From the IMG/VR virus record IMGVR_UViG_3300017598_000263, positions 7,047-71,046 of that record: DNA of 64,000 nucleotides. One strand, given 5' to 3'. The notes below the pieces were generated by a model, which saw only the letters and a program-made list of their open reading frames with translations, searched no databases and was not told the DNA's origin. Shown here piece by piece: positions 877 through 12,467 of this stretch. How positions within the stretch are numbered: position 1 is the first letter of the stretch; each line of letters starts with the position of its first letter. The stretch is from a virus. Position numbers and translations under genes: made by a program.

Positions 877-1362
877 ATGTCGGATAGTTTAGCATTTAAT
901 TTTAAACCAGAACCAATTGATTTAGGTATAAATACTAGTAATTGGGAATTTATTAATGGTGAATTTGTAAATACAGCAAACAATGAAATAAATACTAATA
1001 ACTCTAATCTTTCAGATGGATCAGCTATGAATGGTTGGCAAAAAGGTGCTTTAGGTATAAATGCTCTTACTGGTTTAGCTGGTATGTTCAATGCTTACAA
1101 AGACTATGGATTACGAAGTAAACAATTAGCTTTTAATAAAGCATTAGCAAATCGTAATTTAGCTAATTCAGCTGTTACAACAAATCAACAGTTGAAGAAC
1201 CAGGCAATTATGGCTGCTCAGTTAGGTGGTGGACATGATTATGGTACGAATGCAATGATTGAAGCTGCAGATCGTAACTATACTCCTGTCAGTGGTGCTC
1301 CAGTAGGACTAGCTGCACCAAAACAAGTATCTCTACGAGATGAGATTGTAAATCCAGTTTAG
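877..1362 (+). CDS. Small virion/ejection protein (N4 gp52-like)
   Basis: 161 aa, Gly/Ala/Asn-rich, no Cys. GGAG RBS upstream. Syntenic with N4. Confidence 0.55.
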   Translation: MSDSLAFNFKPEPIDLGINTSNWEFINGEFVNTANNEINTNNSNLSDGSAMNGWQKGALGINALTGLAGMFNAYKDYGLRSKQLAFNKALANRNLANSAVTTNQQLKNQAIMAAQLGGGHDYGTNAMIEAADRNYTPVSGAPVGLAAPKQVSLRDEIVNPV

Positions 1363-1371
1363 GAAAATACT

Positions 1372-3156
1372 ATGGCTAATAATATTGCTTGGCAACCTAC
1401 TCAGTTTCAAAATATAAATGTTGATCCTACAAGAGGATTAGCTATTGCTAATGCAGCAGCCAAAAGTATGTCTGACACAATTGCTAAACAGCAAGAAGCT
1501 GAATCTTTAGCTGAATACCGTGGTAGTACACTGGATATTGCCAGACAAAAACAAGCTCATCTTGAAGGTGAAGAAGCTAGAAATATTGCTGCAGAAAAGA
1601 GAGCTATAGCTAATGCACGAGCAGAAGATGCTCACAACTTGAAATTGGCTAATGAGCAGGGATTACTTATCAGTGATATAGTTGCGTCATCAGGTGGTAG
1701 TAACTATGACAAAGTTATGCAAGATCCTAAACTACTAGATGATCCTAGATTTAAAAAAATGTTTGGTGGAAGATTAAATACACAAGATCCTATACTTCAA
1801 AACATTCAAGCTGATTTCAAAAAACAAGCAATAGCTCAAAATAAACGATTATTTTCAGATCCGACTGTTTACCATAATACTGTTTACAAGAAACTACTTG
1901 AATCTAAAAAATTCGGTAGAGAAGATGCTGCAGCTATTGCTACAGAAGAAACTACTAAGTTATTCCCAACATTAGATAAAGAGTTTGCTCTAAAGATGAT
2001 GATGCAACCAGGCAAAGCAACCTATAACATGATGGGTGGTAGCAGTGGTGGAGGTAGCGGAAGTAATAAATTACTATTCGGACAAACTAATCCGAATGAT
2101 GAAAAACAACGTATTGAAGATTTTAAAAATCTACAAGGTATTACTGACGATCAAGCTGAACTTCAACTACCGGAATGGTTAGGTGGAGGAAGACCGTTAG
2201 ATTTCTTTGGCGTAGATTTAAAAGGTAATGATATTGCAACATACCTTGCTGACATGGCAAAAACAGATGATAAAGGTCGTCCAGGTACTAATGTTGCAGA
2301 ATCCATAAAATACTTACAAACACTTACTAGAGGTGGTGTTACAGATTTTCGTATCGATAAGCTATCTCCTGACCAATTAAAAGCTTTCCGTACTGGTGCT
2401 AGAAATATGCAAGCAGCACAGGAACGTACTTATAATTCTAAAGGTGGACAATCAGGAAGTATTTTTGAACAGCAAGCAGCAACTCAAAATATGATGAATG
2501 AGCATAATAAGGGTGTTGTAGCTACGCAAAAAATGGATCAGGGTACTAGGCAGCAACGCATCAACACAATCTTAAGTGGATTGCCTGGGGAACCTGCTAA
2601 AGCTAGTAGTAAAGTTCCTAATAAACTTTTAAATGACAGTATTATAGATATTGGTAAAACAAGTAATTCAACAGACCCAATACTAAATAATTTACGTGAT
2701 GAGCCAATAAATGAAGTTTCAGCTAATAGTAAAATTATGGTAAATCCATCTACTATTCCAGATGTTCCTGCACCACGTTATCCGGGAGATGTAGTAACAG
2801 ACTTTATAGGTGACTCAGCAAGTGCTGCTGGTAATCTGTATAAAAAAGGTGTTGATGATATTATTTCTGCACCAGGCAATGTTGCTAAAGTTCTTGGTAA
2901 CATAGGTGCTTGGGGTGGTGCTAAACTTGCTCAAAAGCATATAAAAGAAGATACAATTAAAGGTAAAAATATAAATACTGTATTAGATGCAGTGAATAGT
3001 GGTGATATATCTAAATTAGATAGTCGTCATGTTCGTTTAGCTATAGAAAATAGTGATTCAGAGAGTGATAAAAAGACACTAGAAAAAGTGTTTAATGCAG
3101 TAGTAAAAAAAGAACGTGAAGGACACAAAGGTTTTTATCCTTCAGTATTTAACTAA
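1372..3156 (+). CDS. Virion ejection protein (N4 gp51-like)
   Basis: 594 aa, no Cys, directly upstream of the vRNAP block. Confidence 0.55.
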   Translation: MANNIAWQPTQFQNINVDPTRGLAIANAAAKSMSDTIAKQQEAESLAEYRGSTLDIARQKQAHLEGEEARNIAAEKRAIANARAEDAHNLKLANEQGLLISDIVASSGGSNYDKVMQDPKLLDDPRFKKMFGGRLNTQDPILQNIQADFKKQAIAQNKRLFSDPTVYHNTVYKKLLESKKFGREDAAAIATEETTKLFPTLDKEFALKMMMQPGKATYNMMGGSSGGGSGSNKLLFGQTNPNDEKQRIEDFKNLQGITDDQAELQLPEWLGGGRPLDFFGVDLKGNDIATYLADMAKTDDKGRPGTNVAESIKYLQTLTRGGVTDFRIDKLSPDQLKAFRTGARNMQAAQERTYNSKGGQSGSIFEQQAATQNMMNEHNKGVVATQKMDQGTRQQRINTILSGLPGEPAKASSKVPNKLLNDSIIDIGKTSNSTDPILNNLRDEPINEVSANSKIMVNPSTIPDVPAPRYPGDVVTDFIGDSASAAGNLYKKGVDDIISAPGNVAKVLGNIGAWGGAKLAQKHIKEDTIKGKNINTVLDAVNSGDISKLDSRHVRLAIENSDSESDKKTLEKVFNAVVKKEREGHKGFYPSVFN

Positions 3157-3182
3157 TAGTTTTATGGAATAGATAAGTAAAA

Positions 3183-6167
3183 ATGCCTAATTATATATTT
3201 GATAAAGCTCCGGGTCCGTATGACTTACCTTCACTGGCTGATAGTAAGTCATTTAAGTTAAATAAAAAGTTAGCAGAAAAGCGTGAAAAACTTACACCTG
3301 CTCCATACCCAACTCCTGAAGAAGTAGCTGCAGCTGAATTATCCTTAGCTGGTGGAGCAAACTCTGGAAGCAATATTCTTGATATGATTGAATCAAGCTT
3401 ATACCAGGGTGCAGGTAATATTGCAGATACATACGCAAATATTCAACAGAATGCATTAGGTAACAAAGATTATGCCCTTTCTCCTGAAGTAGATGCATTA
3501 TCCAATGAAGCTCATTCAGATAGCCTTGCAGGTTACACTGGACGAGGAGCTTACCAACAAAATATTAAAAATTTAACTAACTCAGTATCTGAAGCAGATT
3601 CTATAGGTGACTACTGGGACGTAGCTAAACAAGGATTTGCACTTGGTCCTGAAGCATTAGCGGATTCTGCTGCAAGTGGTGTAGAACTTGGACTTGGTGC
3701 ATTAGGAACTGCTGGTGTTACAGCTTTAGCTGGTCCAGTAGCTGGAGCTGTTACAGGTGGATTACTATTTGGTAAAAAAGTTAAGAAAGCAAAAGAAGCT
3801 GCTGAAAAAGTAGTTAGTTTTACTGATCGTTTAGAAAAAGGTGTTAACGCAGTACCAGGCATGATCGTTAAAAGTGCTGGAAGAACAAGTCTACTAACTG
3901 CAGATATTGTTGAACAAATGCGTCAGGAATATAAAGAAGCTAATAATGGTCAAGAACCTTCAGCAGCTTGGTATGGAACAAATGTACCAATAATAATGGC
4001 ACTGAATGCTTTAGAATTTGGAATAATTTCAAAAGCTATACCTAAAGCTAGTAAGTCTTTTGTTAAAGACATGAAAAAATCAATGAAATTCATGCCTAAA
4101 GGACATGTTAAAGAAGCTGCAAAAAGAATACTTAGCGGTGCAAAAAAAGTTTTCACAACAGCTGGACAAGAAGCCGGTCAAGAATACTTGCAAACTTGGC
4201 ATGAAATACTAGCACCAAAAGTAGATGGAGATACATTAAATACATTAGTTAATTCTGCTGTAAAAGAATTAAATGTAGATAAAAATCAGACAGAAGCTAT
4301 AGTAGGTTCAATACTAGGCTTTAGTGCTGGTGGTACTGCTAAAGGTATTGCTACTGTTCCAACAACTGCCGTAGCTGCTACTGCAGACATAACTGCGGGT
4401 ACTGTTAAAAAAGTAGCTAAAGTAGCAGGGAAAGGTATTCAAAAAGTTCAAACAGCTGCTAACTATAAGTTACTTAGTGAGAAAGATCGTCAAGCTGTAT
4501 CTAACCTAAGTAAGGTTAAGAAAAAAGTGTATGACGAAAAAGTTGAAGTTTTAGACAATCAGATAAATATTATTGAAAATTCTGAAACACATACAGATAT
4601 GTTTGAAGATGAAGAATTATCTACAGTAATTAAAGAATACCAGAAAGCCGGTAGTTTTACTGATGAAGACATGAATGACCCAGGTAGATTAAAGAACTTA
4701 AAAGATAAGCTATTAAGTTCTTATCGTGCTGAAAAAGTATTGTTAAGAACAAAACTTGAAACATCTAACATTGCAGCAATGGGTAAATTAGCAGGTAAAA
4801 ATGTTAAAGATGCTACTGTCGAAGCTGCAGAAAAAACTTTAGCATTCGCTGAAGACGTAATACCCGATGAAGTTGTAGAAAAGGCAATAGTAGCTGCACA
4901 AGTAACTAAGAAACAAGCTGCAAAAATGCTAAAAATTGCACAAGATGTAAAATCTAGTGCTGCATTAGGTGTTATAAATGCTGGACTTACAGCGTCTAAA
5001 GACCAATACAAAACTATTTTAACTGCAGCACGTAACCTTGAAGTAGGTGAACTAGAACGATCAATAGACATTATTAAAGATGCAAATCCAGATCTAGGTA
5101 AAAAATTAAATACATTATTAGAACAAAAGATATCTGTACTACCTAGTCTAGGACAAAGTAACGATACACTTATTAATCAAAAAACAGTATCAAAAGTAAT
5201 TAAAAACTTTGGTTCTAAATCAGTATCAGATGCAAATTTAGCATCAGCAATATTTGAATCTTTAGCAGGAAAAGTTGAAGATAACGAGACATTAGATCAA
5301 ATATCTAAAGCACTTGAACACTATAAAAAATCTGATGCATATAAGAATACAGATGCGGAAGGTCGTATTGATGAAACCAATATGGCTGCATTAGAAGGTA
5401 AAATAGAAAAAGCTTCTGCTAGAATTAATCGCAAGAAGAATGCCGTAGATAAAGTAAAAGATGTTAGTACTAAGGCAAAAGAAAAAGTAACAGAGTATTC
5501 TAAGCCTTTAAAGAAACTTATAAAGAAAGCTAAATTAATAACTGAGAAATTCTCAGAAGCTAATAATAAAGTTCAACTAGCTGCAGCAGCAAAAGAAGGA
5601 CCGGAAGCTGTTAAAAAAGTACAAGCTAAAATTGATAAAGGTATAGCTGACGCTAAAGCTGCCCAGGAAGCAGCTCATAAGCTGGCTAAAGAACAGGAAA
5701 TTACTGTACCTGAAGAAACATTTATTCAAAAAGTTAAACGTAATGTAGAAGACATTAATGAAGCAGTTAAAGAAGGGATAGATACTGCTAATGAAGTTAT
5801 TAAAGAATCAAAACGTGAACCTAAAGTTTTAGAAAAAGGTAGTATCAATGATCTTATAAAAAGTATTTCTAACGAGATTAGTAATACTCCAGAAGCTGCT
5901 AAAAATTACTATAACAAAACTAAAGCTTTAGCTAAAAAATTAAAGCTGATAGGATATGAAAGTGTACAGGATATAGAAGACCTGTCTGTTCAGTTCCCTG
6001 GATTAGCAAAAGATCAGAAACTACTTAACCTATTAAAAGATAACTTTGAAGTAGATGAAATGGTAGTAGAGCAAAAAGATACAAACGAAGATATTGATGA
6101 AGTAGTTAACCCGGTAACTGAAAGAAGTATTTTATCTAGACTAAAAAATAAATTTACAGGATGCTAA
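3183..6167 (+). CDS. Large ejection protein equivalent to the N-terminal (about 1,000 aa) domain of N4 virion RNAP
   Basis: 994 aa with Gly/Ala-rich hydrophobic stretches (GLGALGTAGVTALAGPVAG) and coiled coil. Its only Cys is the last residue. Confidence 0.6.
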   Translation: MPNYIFDKAPGPYDLPSLADSKSFKLNKKLAEKREKLTPAPYPTPEEVAAAELSLAGGANSGSNILDMIESSLYQGAGNIADTYANIQQNALGNKDYALSPEVDALSNEAHSDSLAGYTGRGAYQQNIKNLTNSVSEADSIGDYWDVAKQGFALGPEALADSAASGVELGLGALGTAGVTALAGPVAGAVTGGLLFGKKVKKAKEAAEKVVSFTDRLEKGVNAVPGMIVKSAGRTSLLTADIVEQMRQEYKEANNGQEPSAAWYGTNVPIIMALNALEFGIISKAIPKASKSFVKDMKKSMKFMPKGHVKEAAKRILSGAKKVFTTAGQEAGQEYLQTWHEILAPKVDGDTLNTLVNSAVKELNVDKNQTEAIVGSILGFSAGGTAKGIATVPTTAVAATADITAGTVKKVAKVAGKGIQKVQTAANYKLLSEKDRQAVSNLSKVKKKVYDEKVEVLDNQINIIENSETHTDMFEDEELSTVIKEYQKAGSFTDEDMNDPGRLKNLKDKLLSSYRAEKVLLRTKLETSNIAAMGKLAGKNVKDATVEAAEKTLAFAEDVIPDEVVEKAIVAAQVTKKQAAKMLKIAQDVKSSAALGVINAGLTASKDQYKTILTAARNLEVGELERSIDIIKDANPDLGKKLNTLLEQKISVLPSLGQSNDTLINQKTVSKVIKNFGSKSVSDANLASAIFESLAGKVEDNETLDQISKALEHYKKSDAYKNTDAEGRIDETNMAALEGKIEKASARINRKKNAVDKVKDVSTKAKEKVTEYSKPLKKLIKKAKLITEKFSEANNKVQLAAAAKEGPEAVKKVQAKIDKGIADAKAAQEAAHKLAKEQEITVPEETFIQKVKRNVEDINEAVKEGIDTANEVIKESKREPKVLEKGSINDLIKSISNEISNTPEAAKNYYNKTKALAKKLKLIGYESVQDIEDLSVQFPGLAKDQKLLNLLKDNFEVDEMVVEQKDTNEDIDEVVNPVTERSILSRLKNKFTGC

Positions 6168-6173
6168 AAGATA

Positions 6174-9100
6174 ATGGCTAAATTTTGTTCTATCATAAAC
6201 AACATATTTGATAAGTACATTTATGCAGTTGACCAGATTGCTGAAATACAAAAGCTAAAGGATAAACCTTTACGTTTTAATGTATGGGCAACTGAACAAA
6301 GTCATGTCAAAAATCTATTTAAAAAGAATGGAATAAAAGACCTACCTGCTACTGAAGGTATGGATAATTCTCCACATGTAATAACAAAAATTAAAAATGC
6401 TGTTAGACGTGTAAATGAGTCAGAAGCCTTAGACTCTGCTGAAAAATTTATGGAAGATATTATAGGCAGTGATGACAATATAGAATTATCTATTGCTCTC
6501 CATGAAATTATGGAGTCTGTAAAAGGTGAATCTGATAAAGCTCGTAATCTTGGTATTGATATAGTTGGTATTTCTAAAACATCAGTGCTACCAGTGGTCC
6601 CTATGTCTAGAGTAGCTGCTAGTATTGGTAGAAAAATAGTATTCCAAACAGGCCATAGATTCAGAAGTAACAAGAAAAACAGAGTTACATCTGCAGATAT
6701 TGAAACTCTATATTACACTGCAGGTAAAATGGCATTAGAGATGTTGGCAGAAAAGAAGTACATCAGCATCAACGATACGTTACCTTCTATAAAAGATTAC
6801 TTAACTGAAGCAGAGCTTCGTAAAGAAAGTGCAAATATAAATGCTGTTACCAAAAAAGGTAAAGAAGTTAGAACAGTAGCTTTAAACGAAAAGAAACTTG
6901 GTATAAAAGCTGAAAGCACAGCTAACTACTTTTTAAATAGAACTGAATCAGATTTGGCAGATACTAAACTTGGTGTTATAGCAGATGCATTGAGAGCTGT
7001 ACGAGAAATTACACAGCCATCAACAATTGTTAATCCACACACTGAAGGTAATATTGCATCTGAAGAAGACTTAAGAGATTTGGACGACGACAATGTTAAT
7101 CCAGATCCTATAAGTGATAGTGTGCGTCAAGAACTATACAAAAATCCTTTGTACGTAAATAATTCAATTCACGGACTAATGGGTCTATTGAATCGAGAAG
7201 TCAAAAAGACAGGAGATTCTGGTTCAAAAATCATGAGATCACTGCTAGGAACTAATAGCAAAGGCTTAATTGATTCTTTATTTGGAATCAAAAGATCTGA
7301 TGATTTTTCTAAAGATAAAAAAGAAAGTATTGCTGGACAAAACTTATCCAAAACTACGCCTCTTGATGACCTGGCGGAGAATTATGATGTTATCCAGGGG
7401 GATGGAGCAAATCCAGTAGGATTACATCTTCCTATGAAGCAAGGTCGTAACATACGTTTTTACTATCACAACAGCGTATTAAATCCACATGGGTCCAAGC
7501 ATAGTCGTTATACATTAACGTCTGGCAAGTACACAGTAGATATGAATTCCGCTGACTTTAAAAAACTTGTACACGGTATTTCAGAAGCTATTGGTGACAG
7601 TAAACTGACATTAGATAATTTCGTAGGCAAAACCGATAGTAAATTAAATACTGCATTAAAAGTTTATGAAGATTATAAAGCCTACATCAATAAAGGTAGT
7701 TTAAGCAGTGCAGTAGCTGAAGTAGGTAAATTAGCTAAGATTTTCCCAGGTACTGACTACGTTAGTCTTTTGACCGGGTTACAAGCAGTACAGGACATTC
7801 GTACTACACCTGTCAATGGAAAAATAACTACTGAATTCTTAGGTTCTTCAGATGCTACTGCGTCTGGAGGAACTCAAACATTTATGCAAGCTTTAGGTAC
7901 CAAAGAATCAGTTACAAAATTCTTAAGAAAATTAGGAATGCTTAAGAATGCTGATGGTAACGCTGAAGTAAAAATGAGAGATTTATATGCCATTATGGAA
8001 AATGGTATTAAAGATTTCATTGCTGGAAAAAGTATTGAAGGTTTATCAGGACAAGAACTTAAAGTTGATAAAGATGAAAAATTAACAGGTTCAAGATTGC
8101 TAATGGCTAAAACGGTAGAACTGTTATTTGATAATGGTGACAACCTTAGAAATTTAGCTAAAGATCCAACAATGGTTTTTGTATACAAACAAAGAGAGTT
8201 TGGCGCAGTAGATACAATGGCTCGTAACTTAGCTGATCGTATAGTAGATAATTTAAATAGTAAAAAAGTACGTAGCTACTTATCAACTCTTTTAGACGAT
8301 ACTGAATACGATACTGCTGACATAAAAGATTTAAATAGCAGAACTGGGCTGTATCAAAAAATTGTTACTGCAGTGAAAGACACTGGTCTTACAAGTGACC
8401 TATATAACATTTTGAAAGCTACTGTAGATAACCAATACCTGGAACATTACAATAGTCGTTTGGAGTCTGTATGGAAATTTGTAGAAGATTTAGACTTAGA
8501 TACTAACTTTAAAATTCTTCCTGCTGGAGCAGTATTATCTGGTAAAGAAAATAACATTAATGATCTAAAGCAATTTGGTATGCCAATTTCAAAAGTGCAT
8601 GAAATAGCACATGAAGTCGGGGATACTGGTGATGTGATATTAACTCGTGAACAAAAGTTAGCTAAGTCAGTGGCTGAAGTATCTACTGTGCACAGTATTG
8701 ACTCAGCACAGCTTTACCATGCATTAGATAGAGTAATGAAGAAACCTGAGTTTAAAGGAATGGGAGCTGTAGTTGTACACGATGAAGTACGTGGTCCTGT
8801 ATCTTTAGTGAGAGCTGTAGAAGTAGAGTATAGAAATATTACTAAAGAGATTACTCAGAAATATGATATTCATCAACAGATCTTACTAGCAGTAGCTGCA
8901 TATAATCCTGAAGTAGTTAACGATCCAAAATACAAAGCATTGATGACTGAGATCAATGGACATGTTGAAGAAAAAAATAAAATTATTAGTAATAGTTTTA
9001 ATGAAGACACTGACGCTTTAATTGGTGATAATGCAAAAATTAAAGAATTCGCTGGTGAAGTAGAAGTTGAAACTAAAAAAGAAACAAAGCAGGAAACTAA

Positions 9101-12100
9101 GCCTGAGACTAAAAAAGAAAAGTCAACTCCGGCTAAGAAAGCTTTAAGCATATTAGAAGATCTTGCAGGTGAATCTGAAATAATAGCTAAATTCTTAAAG
9201 TCTGTTAATTCTAGTAAAATAGAAATGGGAGATGATAATAAGTTTTATTCTGGAGATGACCAAATAACTATATCTGGTACCGATATTGGTAGAGGTGCTG
9301 GTGAATCTTTAGATATGTCTAAGCCTGGTGACAGAAAGCTACAGAAAGAACTTATTGAGCATGAGATTACACATGCAAATACAGTAGCTTTAATAGCTAA
9401 AGAATTAAGCAGAGTTGGTCAAAGTGAGACTAAGAGAGAATTACAATACTTTAATAAAGCTATTGAAAATCTAAATAAGCTACTTCCTAATATTATAAAA
9501 AATAGTATAGAAGGTAATTTAAACGATGAGACTTATGATCGTGTTACTTACGTATTAAATCAAAAGAATGAAGCTGATAAATTAGCTGAATTCATAGCTA
9601 TAATGACAACAGAGCCTGAAGTGGCTGCTGATATATATAAAATGCTGTCTAAAGAAAATCCAAATCTACTGGAAAGGATTAAGGCTTTCATTAATAAAGT
9701 TAAAACTGAATACCTGGGTATCAGTGCCAAAGATCTTGATAATGAAATCGACGTAGAAAAGCTATACGGTGCTTTAGTTAATACAGTAGCTACCGGTGAA
9801 ACTCAAAGAGAGCAGCAGTACGCTGAAGCTAAAGTGTGGTTGAGTGCGTATAAAAGAAATTATGGTGCAGGTAATACTGAACAAGTTAAAGCTAATGAAA
9901 AACGTAAAGGTAAACTAAATTACCTTAATTATACTGTAGCCAGTATGATGAATAGCAAACTTGAAAAGAATGGTCAAAGACTTATAGGAAAACTGCATGA
10001 CACAATGAAATCAGTATTTCCTATGTACTTTGATGTTGCTAATAAAATTAATGGTATATACGACAGCTCAGAAGCTCTACAGCAGTTCTATAACACAGTA
10101 ACTGGTGAAGGTTCTGACAAAGTACTTAAAGCAGACTTATTAGCACAAGCTCATAAACTAATGGCTCAACAGACAGCAATTACTAATGACCAGATGGGTA
10201 AATTTAATGAGCTGTTAGGAAAGATGAGTGCTAAAGAAAAAGCTACTATAGGTCGTTTTGTAAATGAAATGCCATTGCATGACTATTTTGTTTTAGCTGA
10301 TGAGTTTAAAACTGAAGAAGCGATAGCGACTGAAGTAACTAAACTAGAAAAGAAAATTAGAAAGCTTAAACAAAAAGAAGCTATTAACGACGTAGATTCT
10401 TTAATTGCCTGGAATGTTCTTCATGATGAAGACACAAAAGGTACAATTTATAATTTAGAAACAAAATATCCTATAAGTGATGATTCTGATTTTGGTATTT
10501 TAGTACGTAAACTATTAGCTTTGAAATCTATACAGGCTATAGAAAAGACTGAGGAAGGTTCTGGTAACTTTGAAAAGCTACTAGAAAATACTGACCTGGT
10601 TAATTTACTTAAAGATACAAGTGTAGCTAATAAACTAAGCCTATTAGAAAATAATGGTACCGGTAGATTAACAGATAGTGGTGTAGCTAATTACTGGAAG
10701 GAACCTTTTGTTACTGAGGTAATTGAACTTAGTGATTTAAAGAGATATGAAAACGGAGAAAATACCGGGTGGAAAGTATTAAGGCATCCTACAACCAATA
10801 GCTTGGGTGTTGTATACAAATATATTATTGATTCTACAAATATTGGTGGTGCATACACAGATGTAAAATTAAAGTCTGCAGATATTACTGTGACCGGTAC
10901 TAAAATGAAATATAAAGAACTAGTTGATGCTCCAGACAAAACTAGAAAACTAAGGTTAACTACAGAAGAGAAAACTGAATTAGGGTTGGTAGATGATTTT
11001 AGTCAGAATTTAGTACGTAGTACATCTCATAGTATGGCTATTCAAGATTCACAAATATTACGTGATGGTATTTTAAGAAAAGAAACCAGAATGGTTATAG
11101 GAAAGAATGTTACTGAATTAGTAGATACTATTAAAGCAGAAAATGTTCATAGTCCCTGGTTCGTACAGTTTGAAGGTGGTGTTTCCTGGGAAGATATTGA
11201 TCCTAGTAGACCTGATTTAGATGAAGCTACTAGAAAACAATACAAGATGATACGAGCTAAGTATAAGCCTGTAGGTAATAGAGCGTCTAATGTAAAAGGT
11301 TTTGATAAAGAAATACATTTAGTTAAAAAAGATATTGCTCATTGGTTGATGGGTGGTAGTTCTCAATCATTATTCAGCAATCCAAAATACAAATGGGCTG
11401 CACGAGTAGTGAAAGATTTAATTGCAGCATCTAAGATTAGTATGGTTGTACTAAATCCATTGAAAATTATAAACGATAATATATCTAATATTGCTTACAT
11501 TGGTGTAATGGGAGCATCTCCATTATTTATAGCTAAAAACTATAAGGATATTACTCGTGATTTCCAAGAGTATTCAGATCTACAACGTCAAATTGTACAG
11601 TTAAAAGTACAGATGGTTGCTAGACCAAATAGTAAAAAGTTAGAAAAGAAAGTTGAAGCATTACGTAAACAAGTAGATAAAAATCCTTTAGCTGGATTAC
11701 AGGATAGAGGTTTCATAAACTCTCTTGGTTCAGATTTGGTAGCTAAAAATGCAGATACACTTTCTGGTTTACAGGCAGATATACATTCAGCATTAGAATA
11801 CCTATTGGTAAATAAAAAAGGTAATAAACGATATATTTCTCACTTTATTGCACAATTACATAGCATAGGCGGTAATGGTGAAGATTTCTTAAAATACTTA
11901 GGAAGTTTAGCCAAGAAAGCTGGCAAAGATGGGAAAGGAGCTGCTAAAGAGCTAGATCAAGTTTATGATCGATTAAAAGAGATTCGTACTGATGAAGATA
12001 TTGTGAATTATGTATCTCAATATACAACAAGTCCTGGTGCTGAAACTGTTCGTATTGGATCTTCTATAACTGATTTAACAGATGTGTTAGCTAAAGAAAC

Positions 12101-12467
12101 TTTGTATCGTCATTTAATGGAAAATGAAAATATGAGTTCTGAAGATGCACGTATAAAAGTTCTTGATTCATTCCCGGATTACAAAGAGAACATGCCTATT
12201 ACTATAAAAGAATTAAGTAATAACGGTATCATTATGTTCCCATCGTTCTGGTTAAGAATTCAGAAAGTTATATACCATACAGTTAAAGACAAGCCAATTA
12301 ACTTAGCTACTGAGATGTTGCTTCAAGATATGGTTGGTAGTAATTTGAATACAATTATGGGAGCAAATGTAGTTAACAAGTACAATGAGTTTGGTGGAAT
12401 ATTCCATACACCATTTGAACCTATGAGTCTTGCTACGTTTGTACCTGTAAACTTATTTAAGTGGTAG
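6174..12467 (+). CDS. Virion-encapsidated single-subunit RNA polymerase with zincin-like HExxH domain and C-terminal domain
   Basis: T7-superfamily motifs: A SSDATASGG (about 7845-7871), B RNLAKDPTMVFVY (about 8148-8186), HSIDS, C VVHDE (about 8772-8786). HEITH at about 9360. Only Cys is residue 5. Confidence 0.85.
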   Translation: MAKFCSIINNIFDKYIYAVDQIAEIQKLKDKPLRFNVWATEQSHVKNLFKKNGIKDLPATEGMDNSPHVITKIKNAVRRVNESEALDSAEKFMEDIIGSDDNIELSIALHEIMESVKGESDKARNLGIDIVGISKTSVLPVVPMSRVAASIGRKIVFQTGHRFRSNKKNRVTSADIETLYYTAGKMALEMLAEKKYISINDTLPSIKDYLTEAELRKESANINAVTKKGKEVRTVALNEKKLGIKAESTANYFLNRTESDLADTKLGVIADALRAVREITQPSTIVNPHTEGNIASEEDLRDLDDDNVNPDPISDSVRQELYKNPLYVNNSIHGLMGLLNREVKKTGDSGSKIMRSLLGTNSKGLIDSLFGIKRSDDFSKDKKESIAGQNLSKTTPLDDLAENYDVIQGDGANPVGLHLPMKQGRNIRFYYHNSVLNPHGSKHSRYTLTSGKYTVDMNSADFKKLVHGISEAIGDSKLTLDNFVGKTDSKLNTALKVYEDYKAYINKGSLSSAVAEVGKLAKIFPGTDYVSLLTGLQAVQDIRTTPVNGKITTEFLGSSDATASGGTQTFMQALGTKESVTKFLRKLGMLKNADGNAEVKMRDLYAIMENGIKDFIAGKSIEGLSGQELKVDKDEKLTGSRLLMAKTVELLFDNGDNLRNLAKDPTMVFVYKQREFGAVDTMARNLADRIVDNLNSKKVRSYLSTLLDDTEYDTADIKDLNSRTGLYQKIVTAVKDTGLTSDLYNILKATVDNQYLEHYNSRLESVWKFVEDLDLDTNFKILPAGAVLSGKENNINDLKQFGMPISKVHEIAHEVGDTGDVILTREQKLAKSVAEVSTVHSIDSAQLYHALDRVMKKPEFKGMGAVVVHDEVRGPVSLVRAVEVEYRNITKEITQKYDIHQQILLAVAAYNPEVVNDPKYKALMTEINGHVEEKNKIISNSFNEDTDALIGDNAKIKEFAGEVEVETKKETKQETKPETKKEKSTPAKKALSILEDLAGESEIIAKFLKSVNSSKIEMGDDNKFYSGDDQITISGTDIGRGAGESLDMSKPGDRKLQKELIEHEITHANTVALIAKELSRVGQSETKRELQYFNKAIENLNKLLPNIIKNSIEGNLNDETYDRVTYVLNQKNEADKLAEFIAIMTTEPEVAADIYKMLSKENPNLLERIKAFINKVKTEYLGISAKDLDNEIDVEKLYGALVNTVATGETQREQQYAEAKVWLSAYKRNYGAGNTEQVKANEKRKGKLNYLNYTVASMMNSKLEKNGQRLIGKLHDTMKSVFPMYFDVANKINGIYDSSEALQQFYNTVTGEGSDKVLKADLLAQAHKLMAQQTAITNDQMGKFNELLGKMSAKEKATIGRFVNEMPLHDYFVLADEFKTEEAIATEVTKLEKKIRKLKQKEAINDVDSLIAWNVLHDEDTKGTIYNLETKYPISDDSDFGILVRKLLALKSIQAIEKTEEGSGNFEKLLENTDLVNLLKDTSVANKLSLLENNGTGRLTDSGVANYWKEPFVTEVIELSDLKRYENGENTGWKVLRHPTTNSLGVVYKYIIDSTNIGGAYTDVKLKSADITVTGTKMKYKELVDAPDKTRKLRLTTEEKTELGLVDDFSQNLVRSTSHSMAIQDSQILRDGILRKETRMVIGKNVTELVDTIKAENVHSPWFVQFEGGVSWEDIDPSRPDLDEATRKQYKMIRAKYKPVGNRASNVKGFDKEIHLVKKDIAHWLMGGSSQSLFSNPKYKWAARVVKDLIAASKISMVVLNPLKIINDNISNIAYIGVMGASPLFIAKNYKDITRDFQEYSDLQRQIVQLKVQMVARPNSKKLEKKVEALRKQVDKNPLAGLQDRGFINSLGSDLVAKNADTLSGLQADIHSALEYLLVNKKGNKRYISHFIAQLHSIGGNGEDFLKYLGSLAKKAGKDGKGAAKELDQVYDRLKEIRTDEDIVNYVSQYTTSPGAETVRIGSSITDLTDVLAKETLYRHLMENENMSSEDARIKVLDSFPDYKENMPITIKELSNNGIIMFPSFWLRIQKVIYHTVKDKPINLATEMLLQDMVGSNLNTIMGANVVNKYNEFGGIFHTPFEPMSLATFVPVNLFKW

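Follow-up and report, generated by a model that had tools for sequence, protein, structure and literature searches.

We analysed a 64,000-nucleotide stretch of viral DNA (IMG/VR record IMGVR_UViG_3300017598_000263, positions 7,047 to 71,046; hereafter the window, G+C content 34.7%), near whose 5' end an N4-type virion RNA polymerase (vRNAP) appears to be encoded by two separate genes. Four consecutive open reading frames (ORFs) of 161, 594, 994 and 2097 amino acids (aa) occupy the plus strand within the first 12.5 kb, and the best explanation for this part of the window is the ejection-protein operon of a distant N4-like podophage. The last two ORFs encode an N-terminal module (N-module) protein, P0001, and the polymerase protein, P0002, each with a single cysteine (Cys) at the end facing the other:

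3183..6167, plus strand: N-module protein P0001, 994 aa, assigned as counterpart of the N-terminal domain plus linker of N4 gp50; single Cys at residue 994
6162..6164, plus strand: codon TGC of Cys994, the last residue before TAA
6165..6167, plus strand: stop codon TAA of the 994-aa ORF (protein end ...KFTGC*)
6174..12467, plus strand: polymerase protein P0002, 2097 aa; single Cys at residue 5
6186..6188, plus strand: codon TGT of Cys5 (protein start MAKFC)

A script count over the 3,091 aa of the two proteins returned residues 994 and 5 as their only Cys, in agreement with the preliminary description of this DNA, which had reached the same result by manual scan; coordinates and codons likewise bore out its statement that the two ORFs share a frame and are separated by TAA plus 6 nucleotides (nt). 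Cys makes up 0.78% of the residues encoded by the 41 window ORFs of at least 150 aa (114 in 14,584 aa), a background rate at which approximately 24 would be expected in 3,091 aa, as compared with the two that were found, both at the junction. No clear Shine-Dalgarno sequence was seen before the polymerase start (window positions 6165-6176, TAAAAGATAATG).

P0002 consists of an N4-type vRNAP module, a linker and a C-terminal module resembling that of gp50. An AlphaFold2 model of residues 1-1020, built from 23 homologs, had a predicted local distance difference test (pLDDT) score of 83.1 and a predicted template modelling (pTM) score of 0.81, with disorder at residues 1-24 and 964-988. Foldseek gave its top ranks to the N4 mini-vRNAP crystal structures and the 2025 cryo-electron microscopy (cryo-EM) models of gp50 (E 3e-14 to 5e-12, TM approximately 0.5 along almost the whole of both structures), among them 2po4, 3c3l, 3c46, 3c2p and the gp50 model 9pnq (E 3e-14 to 1e-12), and placed T7 and mitochondrial RNA polymerases (RNAPs) after them; the best match was 2po4 (E 3.3e-14, TM 0.52/0.49). 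VIA-align superimposed model residues 1-954 on 2po4 (Z 18.3, 740 residues aligned, root-mean-square deviation (rmsd) 6.9) and residues 12-954 on gp50 1028-2061 in 9pnq (Z 16.9, 759 aligned, rmsd 7.1), with Z scores for T7-type and mitochondrial RNAPs that equalled those of the N4 structures. The parts of P0002 are located as follows:

6174..9062, plus strand: single-subunit RNA polymerase module, approximately residues 1-963 (AlphaFold2 model, Foldseek, VIA-align)
9063..9137, plus strand: low-complexity linker between polymerase and C-terminal module, residues 964-988 (pLDDT below 50)
9138..12467, plus strand: C-terminal module, approximately residues 989-2097, with HExxH at 1063-1067 (phrog_2206)

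A homolog profile matched T7 RNAP at residues 584-717 (E 2.7e-4), and D560, K663, Y671 and D870 are invariant in 44 P0002 homologs; we take these residues to be polymerase motifs A, B and C. In the C-terminal module, residues 1769-2075 matched positions 3133-3385 of 3406 in phrog_2206, 'virion RNA polymerase' (E 4.8e-32), and tblastn aligned P0002 with the C-terminal ends of Pseudomonas N4-like vRNAPs (E 1e-6 to 7e-9). BLASTP against N4 gp50 gave nothing significant for the window proteins, sequence searches of solved structures with P0001, P0002 and an early profile gave nothing relevant, and two further module profiles retrieved only coiled-coil noise from the same structures. Judging from homology and gene position, P0002 would be packaged in the virion and ejected into the host.

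The HExxH motif of the C-terminal module (EHEITH, window 9360-9374, P0002 residues 1063-1067) has H1063, E1064 and H1067 invariant in the 44 homologs, and a profile search weakly matched this region to a solved 'Internal virion protein', 9sfn_G (E 0.035). The account of the Pseudomonas phage DEV vRNAP, gp71, predicts a zinc-binding motif in the same part of the protein (PMC11445570), and the HExxH region may be a zincin-like module of the C-terminal domain.

N4 gp50 is described as an N-terminal domain (NTD, residues 1-906), a low-complexity linker of 100 residues (907-1006), the RNAP (1007-2101), a second linker of 23 residues (2102-2123) and a C-terminal domain (CTD) (PMC13434306). The first residues of P0002 correspond approximately to gp50 residue 1015 and, with model residues 12-954 aligned to gp50 1028-2061, the split lies at the boundary of the N4 polymerase domain, where the preliminary description had placed it. 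The linker at residues 964-988 is the site at which the three-piece and second-linker-split relatives described below are broken. The breaks fall in disordered linkers that match the two linkers of N4.

To place the junction among its relatives, IMG/VR was scanned with the 44-homolog alignment, yielding 41 loci; taken together with the window, two Alteromonas records and the locus L003, they make up the 44 sources counted here (the window plus 43 loci). Modules were named by hidden Markov models (HMMs) and not by their Cys. The junction between N-module and polymerase genes was visible in 34 of the 44 sources, and in all 34 each protein contained exactly one Cys, located 0-4 residues from the C-terminus upstream and at position 3-6 downstream; nine of the other sources are cut at the 5' end by the contig and one (L016) is a three-piece form. 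After removal of 8 near-identical loci from 33 pairs, the 25 non-redundant pairs held 50 Cys in 78,648 aa, all of them at the junction. Cys5 is one of 32 invariant columns among 44 full-length homologs (21-50% identity), 42 of which have no Cys beyond it. In a wider search, phmmer with P0002 residues 1-1100 against 1.84 billion cluster representatives gave 70 matches; 65 start with the pattern [MV]x(1-6)C, and the remaining five comprise the fused protein P0053 and fragments whose first residue is internal to the protein.

Among phage records, those of Alteromonas phages PT11-V19 and R22Y are nearest (approximately 29% identity); in both, a 1000- or 1008-aa protein with its only Cys 3-4 residues from the end precedes one of 2082 or 2083 aa with Cys6 alone. 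Megablast of window positions 5000-8000 against phages found no match, and searches of viral contigs for related loci, with P0002, P0053 and P0003 as single-protein queries, found none. A scan of genome contigs returned one 2.8-kb fragment of a metagenome-assembled genome, which was left unused.

P0001 was assigned as the counterpart of the gp50 NTD from its position, a hydrophobic Gly/Ala-rich stretch at approximately residues 160-197, and its fused relatives; its sequence matched no Pfam or PHROG family and was not significantly similar to gp50. Its AlphaFold2 model was all-helical with low confidence (pLDDT 58.6), residues 958-979 and 992-994 being disordered. Relatives of the N-module adjoin the polymerase gene in 34 sources, and in an alignment of 23 of these proteins (14-49% identity) the only invariant columns were M1, G379 and C994. 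A database search with P0001 for longer, fused homologs found none, which is weak evidence.

Fused forms were reached through P0053 (1877 aa), in which an N-module is joined to a polymerase (BLASTP matches to both kinds of protein, E 1.6e-34 and 1.9e-34). Its fused junction is free of Cys, and its one Cys lies 3 residues from the C-terminus. A search with P0053 added 26 proteins (27 in all), taken as N-module-polymerase fusions where the polymerase HMM matches. Exactly one Cys, 0-4 residues from the C-terminus, was present in 24 of the 27; P0084 has the C-terminal Cys and one extra, hence 25 of 27 carry a C-terminal Cys and none has one at the fused junction, while P0086 and P0090 are without Cys. 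The C-terminal Cys is one of 23 invariant columns in 22 proteins of this group (17-25% identity).

Where the break lies instead in the second linker, between polymerase and C-terminal module, and both genes could be seen, the Cys pair was present in six of six cases (L016, L045, L046, L047, L048 and the cultured Alteromonas phage AltAD45-P1). Four of these are arranged as follows:

L045: upstream protein 2128 aa, Cys 1 residue from the end; downstream protein 940 aa, Cys3
L046: upstream protein 2322 aa, Cys 2 residues from the end; downstream protein 1337 aa, Cys3
L048: upstream protein 2432 aa, Cys 4 residues from the end; downstream protein, Cys3
AltAD45-P1 (cultured): upstream protein 2481 aa, Cys 2 residues from the end; downstream protein 1409 aa, Cys4

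Stand-alone C-terminal-module proteins had a single Cys in 12 of 12 cases, at position 6 in 11 and at position 9 in one, and five polymerase-plus-C-terminal proteins new in the same search had an N-terminal Cys only. When the chain is in three pieces, the polymerase carries a Cys at each end: Cys4 and Cys1027 of 1030 residues in P0003, and Cys3 and Cys1008 of 1011 in P0006. In L016 the polymerase ends in ...CLAN and the C-terminal-module protein starts with MALKGC, with three unrelated Cys-containing ORFs (737, 595 and 413 aa; L016:3858-9120) between the two genes, which indicates that the pieces need not be adjacent genes. At the other extreme, P0090 (2885 aa) contains all three modules in one chain and no Cys, as does N4 gp50, for which a count over 3500 aa gave zero (gp51 and gp52 also zero), consistent with what the preliminary description had stated of it. 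The Cys pair relocates with the break point and is absent from the fused forms. The comparison that description had proposed, of terminal Cys in split and fused versions, hence gave the pair in 34 of 34 breaks at the first linker and six of six at the second, and in none of the fused junctions.

Two candidate breaks were set aside. L047 shows an additional break between N-module and polymerase without Cys, where two frames overlap with no start codon (L047:11600-12100); this is most likely an indel or frameshift in an otherwise fused gene and was not counted. Shigella phage pSb-1 has its vRNAP annotated as three ORFs with no Cys in any of them; these are likely sequencing breaks, because the annotation of its single-stranded DNA-binding protein is likewise divided into two and the second of the vRNAP breaks falls within the C-terminal module itself. 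Separately, P0071 (567 aa), a C-terminal-module fragment, has the usual Cys6 and five further Cys at 523-548, a cluster that looks like an out-of-frame tail.

A FastTree phylogeny of 96 polymerase modules, computed from a fast alignment, placed the three-piece P0003 as sister of the two-piece L005 (support 100) and grouped the three-piece P0006 and L016 with the two-piece L015 and P0007 (support 99), so that the three-piece form has two origins within the crown clade to which the window belongs. The fused P0090 was sister of the split P0078 (support 99). The second-linker split and the C-terminal Cys changed together in six of six independent contrasts (sign test, p 0.031); for the first-linker split and the N-terminal Cys the same was seen in two of two, too few for a test. 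The tree suggests that Cys-flanked splitting has originated repeatedly.

Upstream of P0001, the window contains two further genes of the operon:

877..1362, plus strand: Cys-free small ejection-type protein, 161 aa, in the position of N4 gp52 (phrog_2646, E 5.9e-07; no Cys)
1372..3156, plus strand: Cys-free ejection-type protein, 594 aa, in the position of N4 gp51 (no Cys)

The absence of Cys from both, already reported in the preliminary description, was confirmed by script count. The 161-aa protein is regarded as the gp52 counterpart by position and size only, phrog_2646 being a family of unknown function; N4 gp52 has 150 aa and gp51 has 644 aa, both without Cys. No Pfam match was found for any of the four ORF products, and no PHROG match for the 594-aa protein. 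Across the relatives, the ORF directly upstream of the N-module gene had no Cys in 33 of 33 loci. The gp52-position protein of L022 (154 aa, L022:3615-4079) has two Cys, at positions 3 and 10, and L022 is the sole locus listed in which that protein has any.

From these patterns we infer a bond, the timing of its formation and its role in threading. With a probability that we put at roughly 70%, an inter-chain disulfide between Cys994 and Cys5 ties the split polymerase head to tail in the virion. The three-domain single chain of N4 would here be encoded as two genes broken in the first linker, from which all other Cys have been purged, as in all N4-like ejection proteins, one Cys being kept at the C-terminus of the N-module and one at polymerase residue 5. 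The bond would most likely form after assembly, once the particle is in oxidising water, since the assembling cytoplasm is reducing. It would replace the missing peptide link and restore the ancestral thread, in which the pieces form a single, nearly linear chain with overhangs of only 0-4 and 2-5 residues, which could be drawn through the narrow tail with the N-module first, the polymerase next and the C-terminal module last. With the Cys only a few residues away from the termini, in disordered tails, their bonding would create hardly any side branch, in keeping with passage through a narrow channel. The purge of other Cys, which has been explained by passage of the ejection proteins through the periplasm (PMC11445570, PMC3821669), would also prevent wrong pairings.

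A further step, that reduction in the cytoplasm then cuts the bond and frees the polymerase, is speculative. We consider it possible but doubtful that the coupling is redox-gated, with one thread serving packaging and tail passage and host thioredoxin or glutathione cutting it in the cytoplasm. If so, the polymerase of the window's type would be freed from a membrane-anchored N-module, and where a lineage has its break at the second linker, reduction would detach the C-terminal domain, an inhibitor of the polymerase in N4 according to PMC13434306; gene splitting and the Cys clasp would then have evolved repeatedly to switch the injected enzyme on.

Among the other explanations, it is unlikely that the terminal Cys are functional without being bonded to each other, forming homodimers, bonding another virion protein or sharing a metal ion. 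Hetero- and homo-pairs look alike at the level of sequence, chains with one exposed Cys each could dimerise, and the invariance of the Cys shows selection without naming the partner. However, the Cys are always paired across a break and move together with it, and the other ejection proteins offer no Cys to bond. A usual metal site would need more than two thiols, conserved His residues are missing next to the Cys, and the like-placed pair of cyanophage A4 is a hetero-disulfide (PMC12002296).

We find it improbable, too, that the pieces are held by non-covalent contacts only, with the Cys serving a transient step (assembly, portal docking or sensing) and no stable bond. The reducing state of the assembling cytoplasm would favour such a view, as would the two AltAD45 polypeptides that run apart on gels, under conditions that the paper leaves unstated in the part describing them (PMC3821669). 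Against it, both Cys are under strong purifying selection, in proteins that are free of Cys elsewhere and exit the cell into oxidising water; two free thiols held close would be expected to oxidise; and A4 provides a disulfide precedent (PMC12002296).

Stop-codon read-through or a programmed frameshift yielding one fused chain, with the Cys incidental, was the alternative raised in the preliminary description, which envisaged a 3,094-aa fusion. In its favour, the window ORFs share a frame that a single TAA interrupts, the two genes lie in one frame in 17 of 33 pairs, and the authors of a published survey proposed read-through, as a guess, for split vRNAPs (PMC10654107). Nevertheless, the frames differ in the other 16 of 33, the distance between the genes varies from -8 to +16 nt, and several gene pairs overlap by 1-8 nt; because the frame relation varies in this way, we regard read-through as practically excluded. 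In addition, three unrelated genes separate the polymerase and C-terminal-domain genes of L016, in AltAD45 the stop codon had been sequenced anew and gels had shown two polypeptides (PMC3821669), and read-through would leave the Cys unexplained. The same re-sequencing, made in AltAD45-P1, and a split kept down to 14-25% identity dispose of the suggestion that the TAA might be a sequencing error, which is very unlikely given the conservation of the split across the family. Equally remote is a true peptide bond made through thiol chemistry (trans-splicing or a reaction like native chemical ligation): such ligation uses a Cys next to each end, yet neither protein contains an intein or Hint family (Pfam, E up to 0.01), the downstream protein has only 2-5 residues ahead of its Cys and the upstream protein only 0-4 after its own, the sequence flanking the junction Cys shows little conservation, and two separate polypeptides were seen in AltAD45 (PMC3821669).

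Several observations weigh against the disulfide clasp itself. The bond in the split-vRNAP family is predicted from comparative evidence, and the HMMs that named the modules were built from the same loci. Phages assemble in a reducing cytoplasm, so that the bond must form late, and the 7 window ORFs with a CxxC motif, the only ones searched for a thiol oxidase, gave no Pfam match above the cut-off. The deep branches of the FastTree phylogeny and its N4 root are unsure. As the A4 proteins have no detectable homology to those of the window, the A4 structure is an analogy only. P0086 (1120 aa, N-module only) has no Cys, although it may be cut; P0042 (1705 aa, no Cys) begins inside the polymerase module; and P0052, P0055 and P0084 have one extra Cys each. 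In the distant lineage L049, a stand-alone 1078-aa polymerase follows a 1300-aa protein, both without Cys. The 1300-aa protein is unrecognised by the N-module HMM and no C-terminal module lies nearby; L049 is a different architecture of injected polymerase, and separate ejected pieces without a Cys clasp thus exist outside the split-vRNAP family. The two L049 genes belong to a Cys-free block (L049:193-11671) of six plus-strand ORFs of at least 150 aa, the last of which is the polymerase. A complex prediction for residues 870-994 of the N-module protein with residues 1-400 of the polymerase scored 0.04 (mark 0.32) and is evidence neither way.

The tail through which N4-like phages inject an enzyme of 3,500 residues is approximately 35 Å wide. 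In the current model the enzyme travels as an unfolded "beads on a string" thread led by its N-terminal domain (PMC13434306). In the family described here the string has been cut at one or both linkers many times, with exactly two Cys kept at each cut in proteins otherwise intolerant of Cys, which we read as strong comparative evidence that covalent continuity of the ejected thread matters. Cultured Alteromonas phages carry both kinds of break and offer a handle for testing such continuity. The pattern also corrects the practice of annotating such gene pairs as frameshifts or joining them as read-through products, and the earlier view of Cys as evidence against injection (PMC3821669). Split vRNAPs and the A4 disulfide were already known; no paper stating a junction-Cys rule for split vRNAPs was found in the literature searched, supplementary files being outside that search.

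The closest known systems include N4 gp50 and other Schitoviridae vRNAPs, such as DEV gp71. The polymerase fold is the same over the whole module, the order of modules is the same, the gene follows two Cys-free ejection proteins as in N4, the C-terminal module is shared through phrog_2206, and the breaks fall where gp50 has flexible linkers (PMC13434306). Across 191 Schitoviridae ejection operons Cys is reported as near-absent (PMC11445570). The difference is that N4 and DEV have one chain of approximately 3,400-3,500 aa with no Cys (PMC11445570), whereas the window has two (994 and 2097 aa) with one Cys at each facing end, and that its proteins have neither significant pairwise sequence similarity to gp50 nor a sequence match in the PDB. 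PT11-V19 and R22Y, at the identity given above, share both the break of the window and its Cys pair.

AltAD45-P1 is a relative in which the polymerase module was detected by HMM and the break (ORF127/ORF126 in AltAD45-P1 to P4) lies at the second linker, not at the first as in the window. A 2013 paper reported its split vRNAP, re-sequenced the stop and showed two polypeptides, of 270 and 175 kDa, on gels; its authors took Cys as a sign of a protein that is not injected (PMC3821669). In a survey of 2023 the ORFs were joined and read-through was put forward (PMC10654107). The passages on AltAD45 in this literature and in the survey leave the junction Cys pair unmentioned. We counted one Cys in the 2481-aa protein, as compared with two stated in the 2013 paper (PMC3821669), and in RefSeq NC_021532 (AltAD45-P1, L051; 6624-18306) the vRNAP genes appear as a 'potential frameshift' misc_feature with no coding sequence.

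Cyanophage A4 (Anabaena phage A-4L) belongs to a different family (Saffermanviridae, 41.7 kb), and no polymerase is described in it, the term 'RNA polymerase' occurring 0 times in the text of its structure paper (PMC12002296). Its consecutive ejection-protein genes, gp27 and gp26, gave no HMM match to the N, polymerase or C-terminal modules at E up to 10, no significant BLASTP match, and hhalign probabilities of 0.1% and 0.2%. In the A-4L record, gp27 (1717 aa) has its sole Cys at 1715, 2 residues from the C-terminus, and gp26 (1114 aa) its sole Cys at 5, a placement that the window matches (994 of 994 and 5, as compared with 1715 of 1717 and 5). The cryo-EM structure of the A4 virion shows gp27 Cys1715 disulfide-bonded to gp26 Cys5, a bond that the authors describe as stabilising a helix-in-cleft contact and not as a substitute for a peptide link (PMC12002296). 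By analogy with A4, the chemistry and geometry of the clasp proposed here have an experimental precedent in another phage family.

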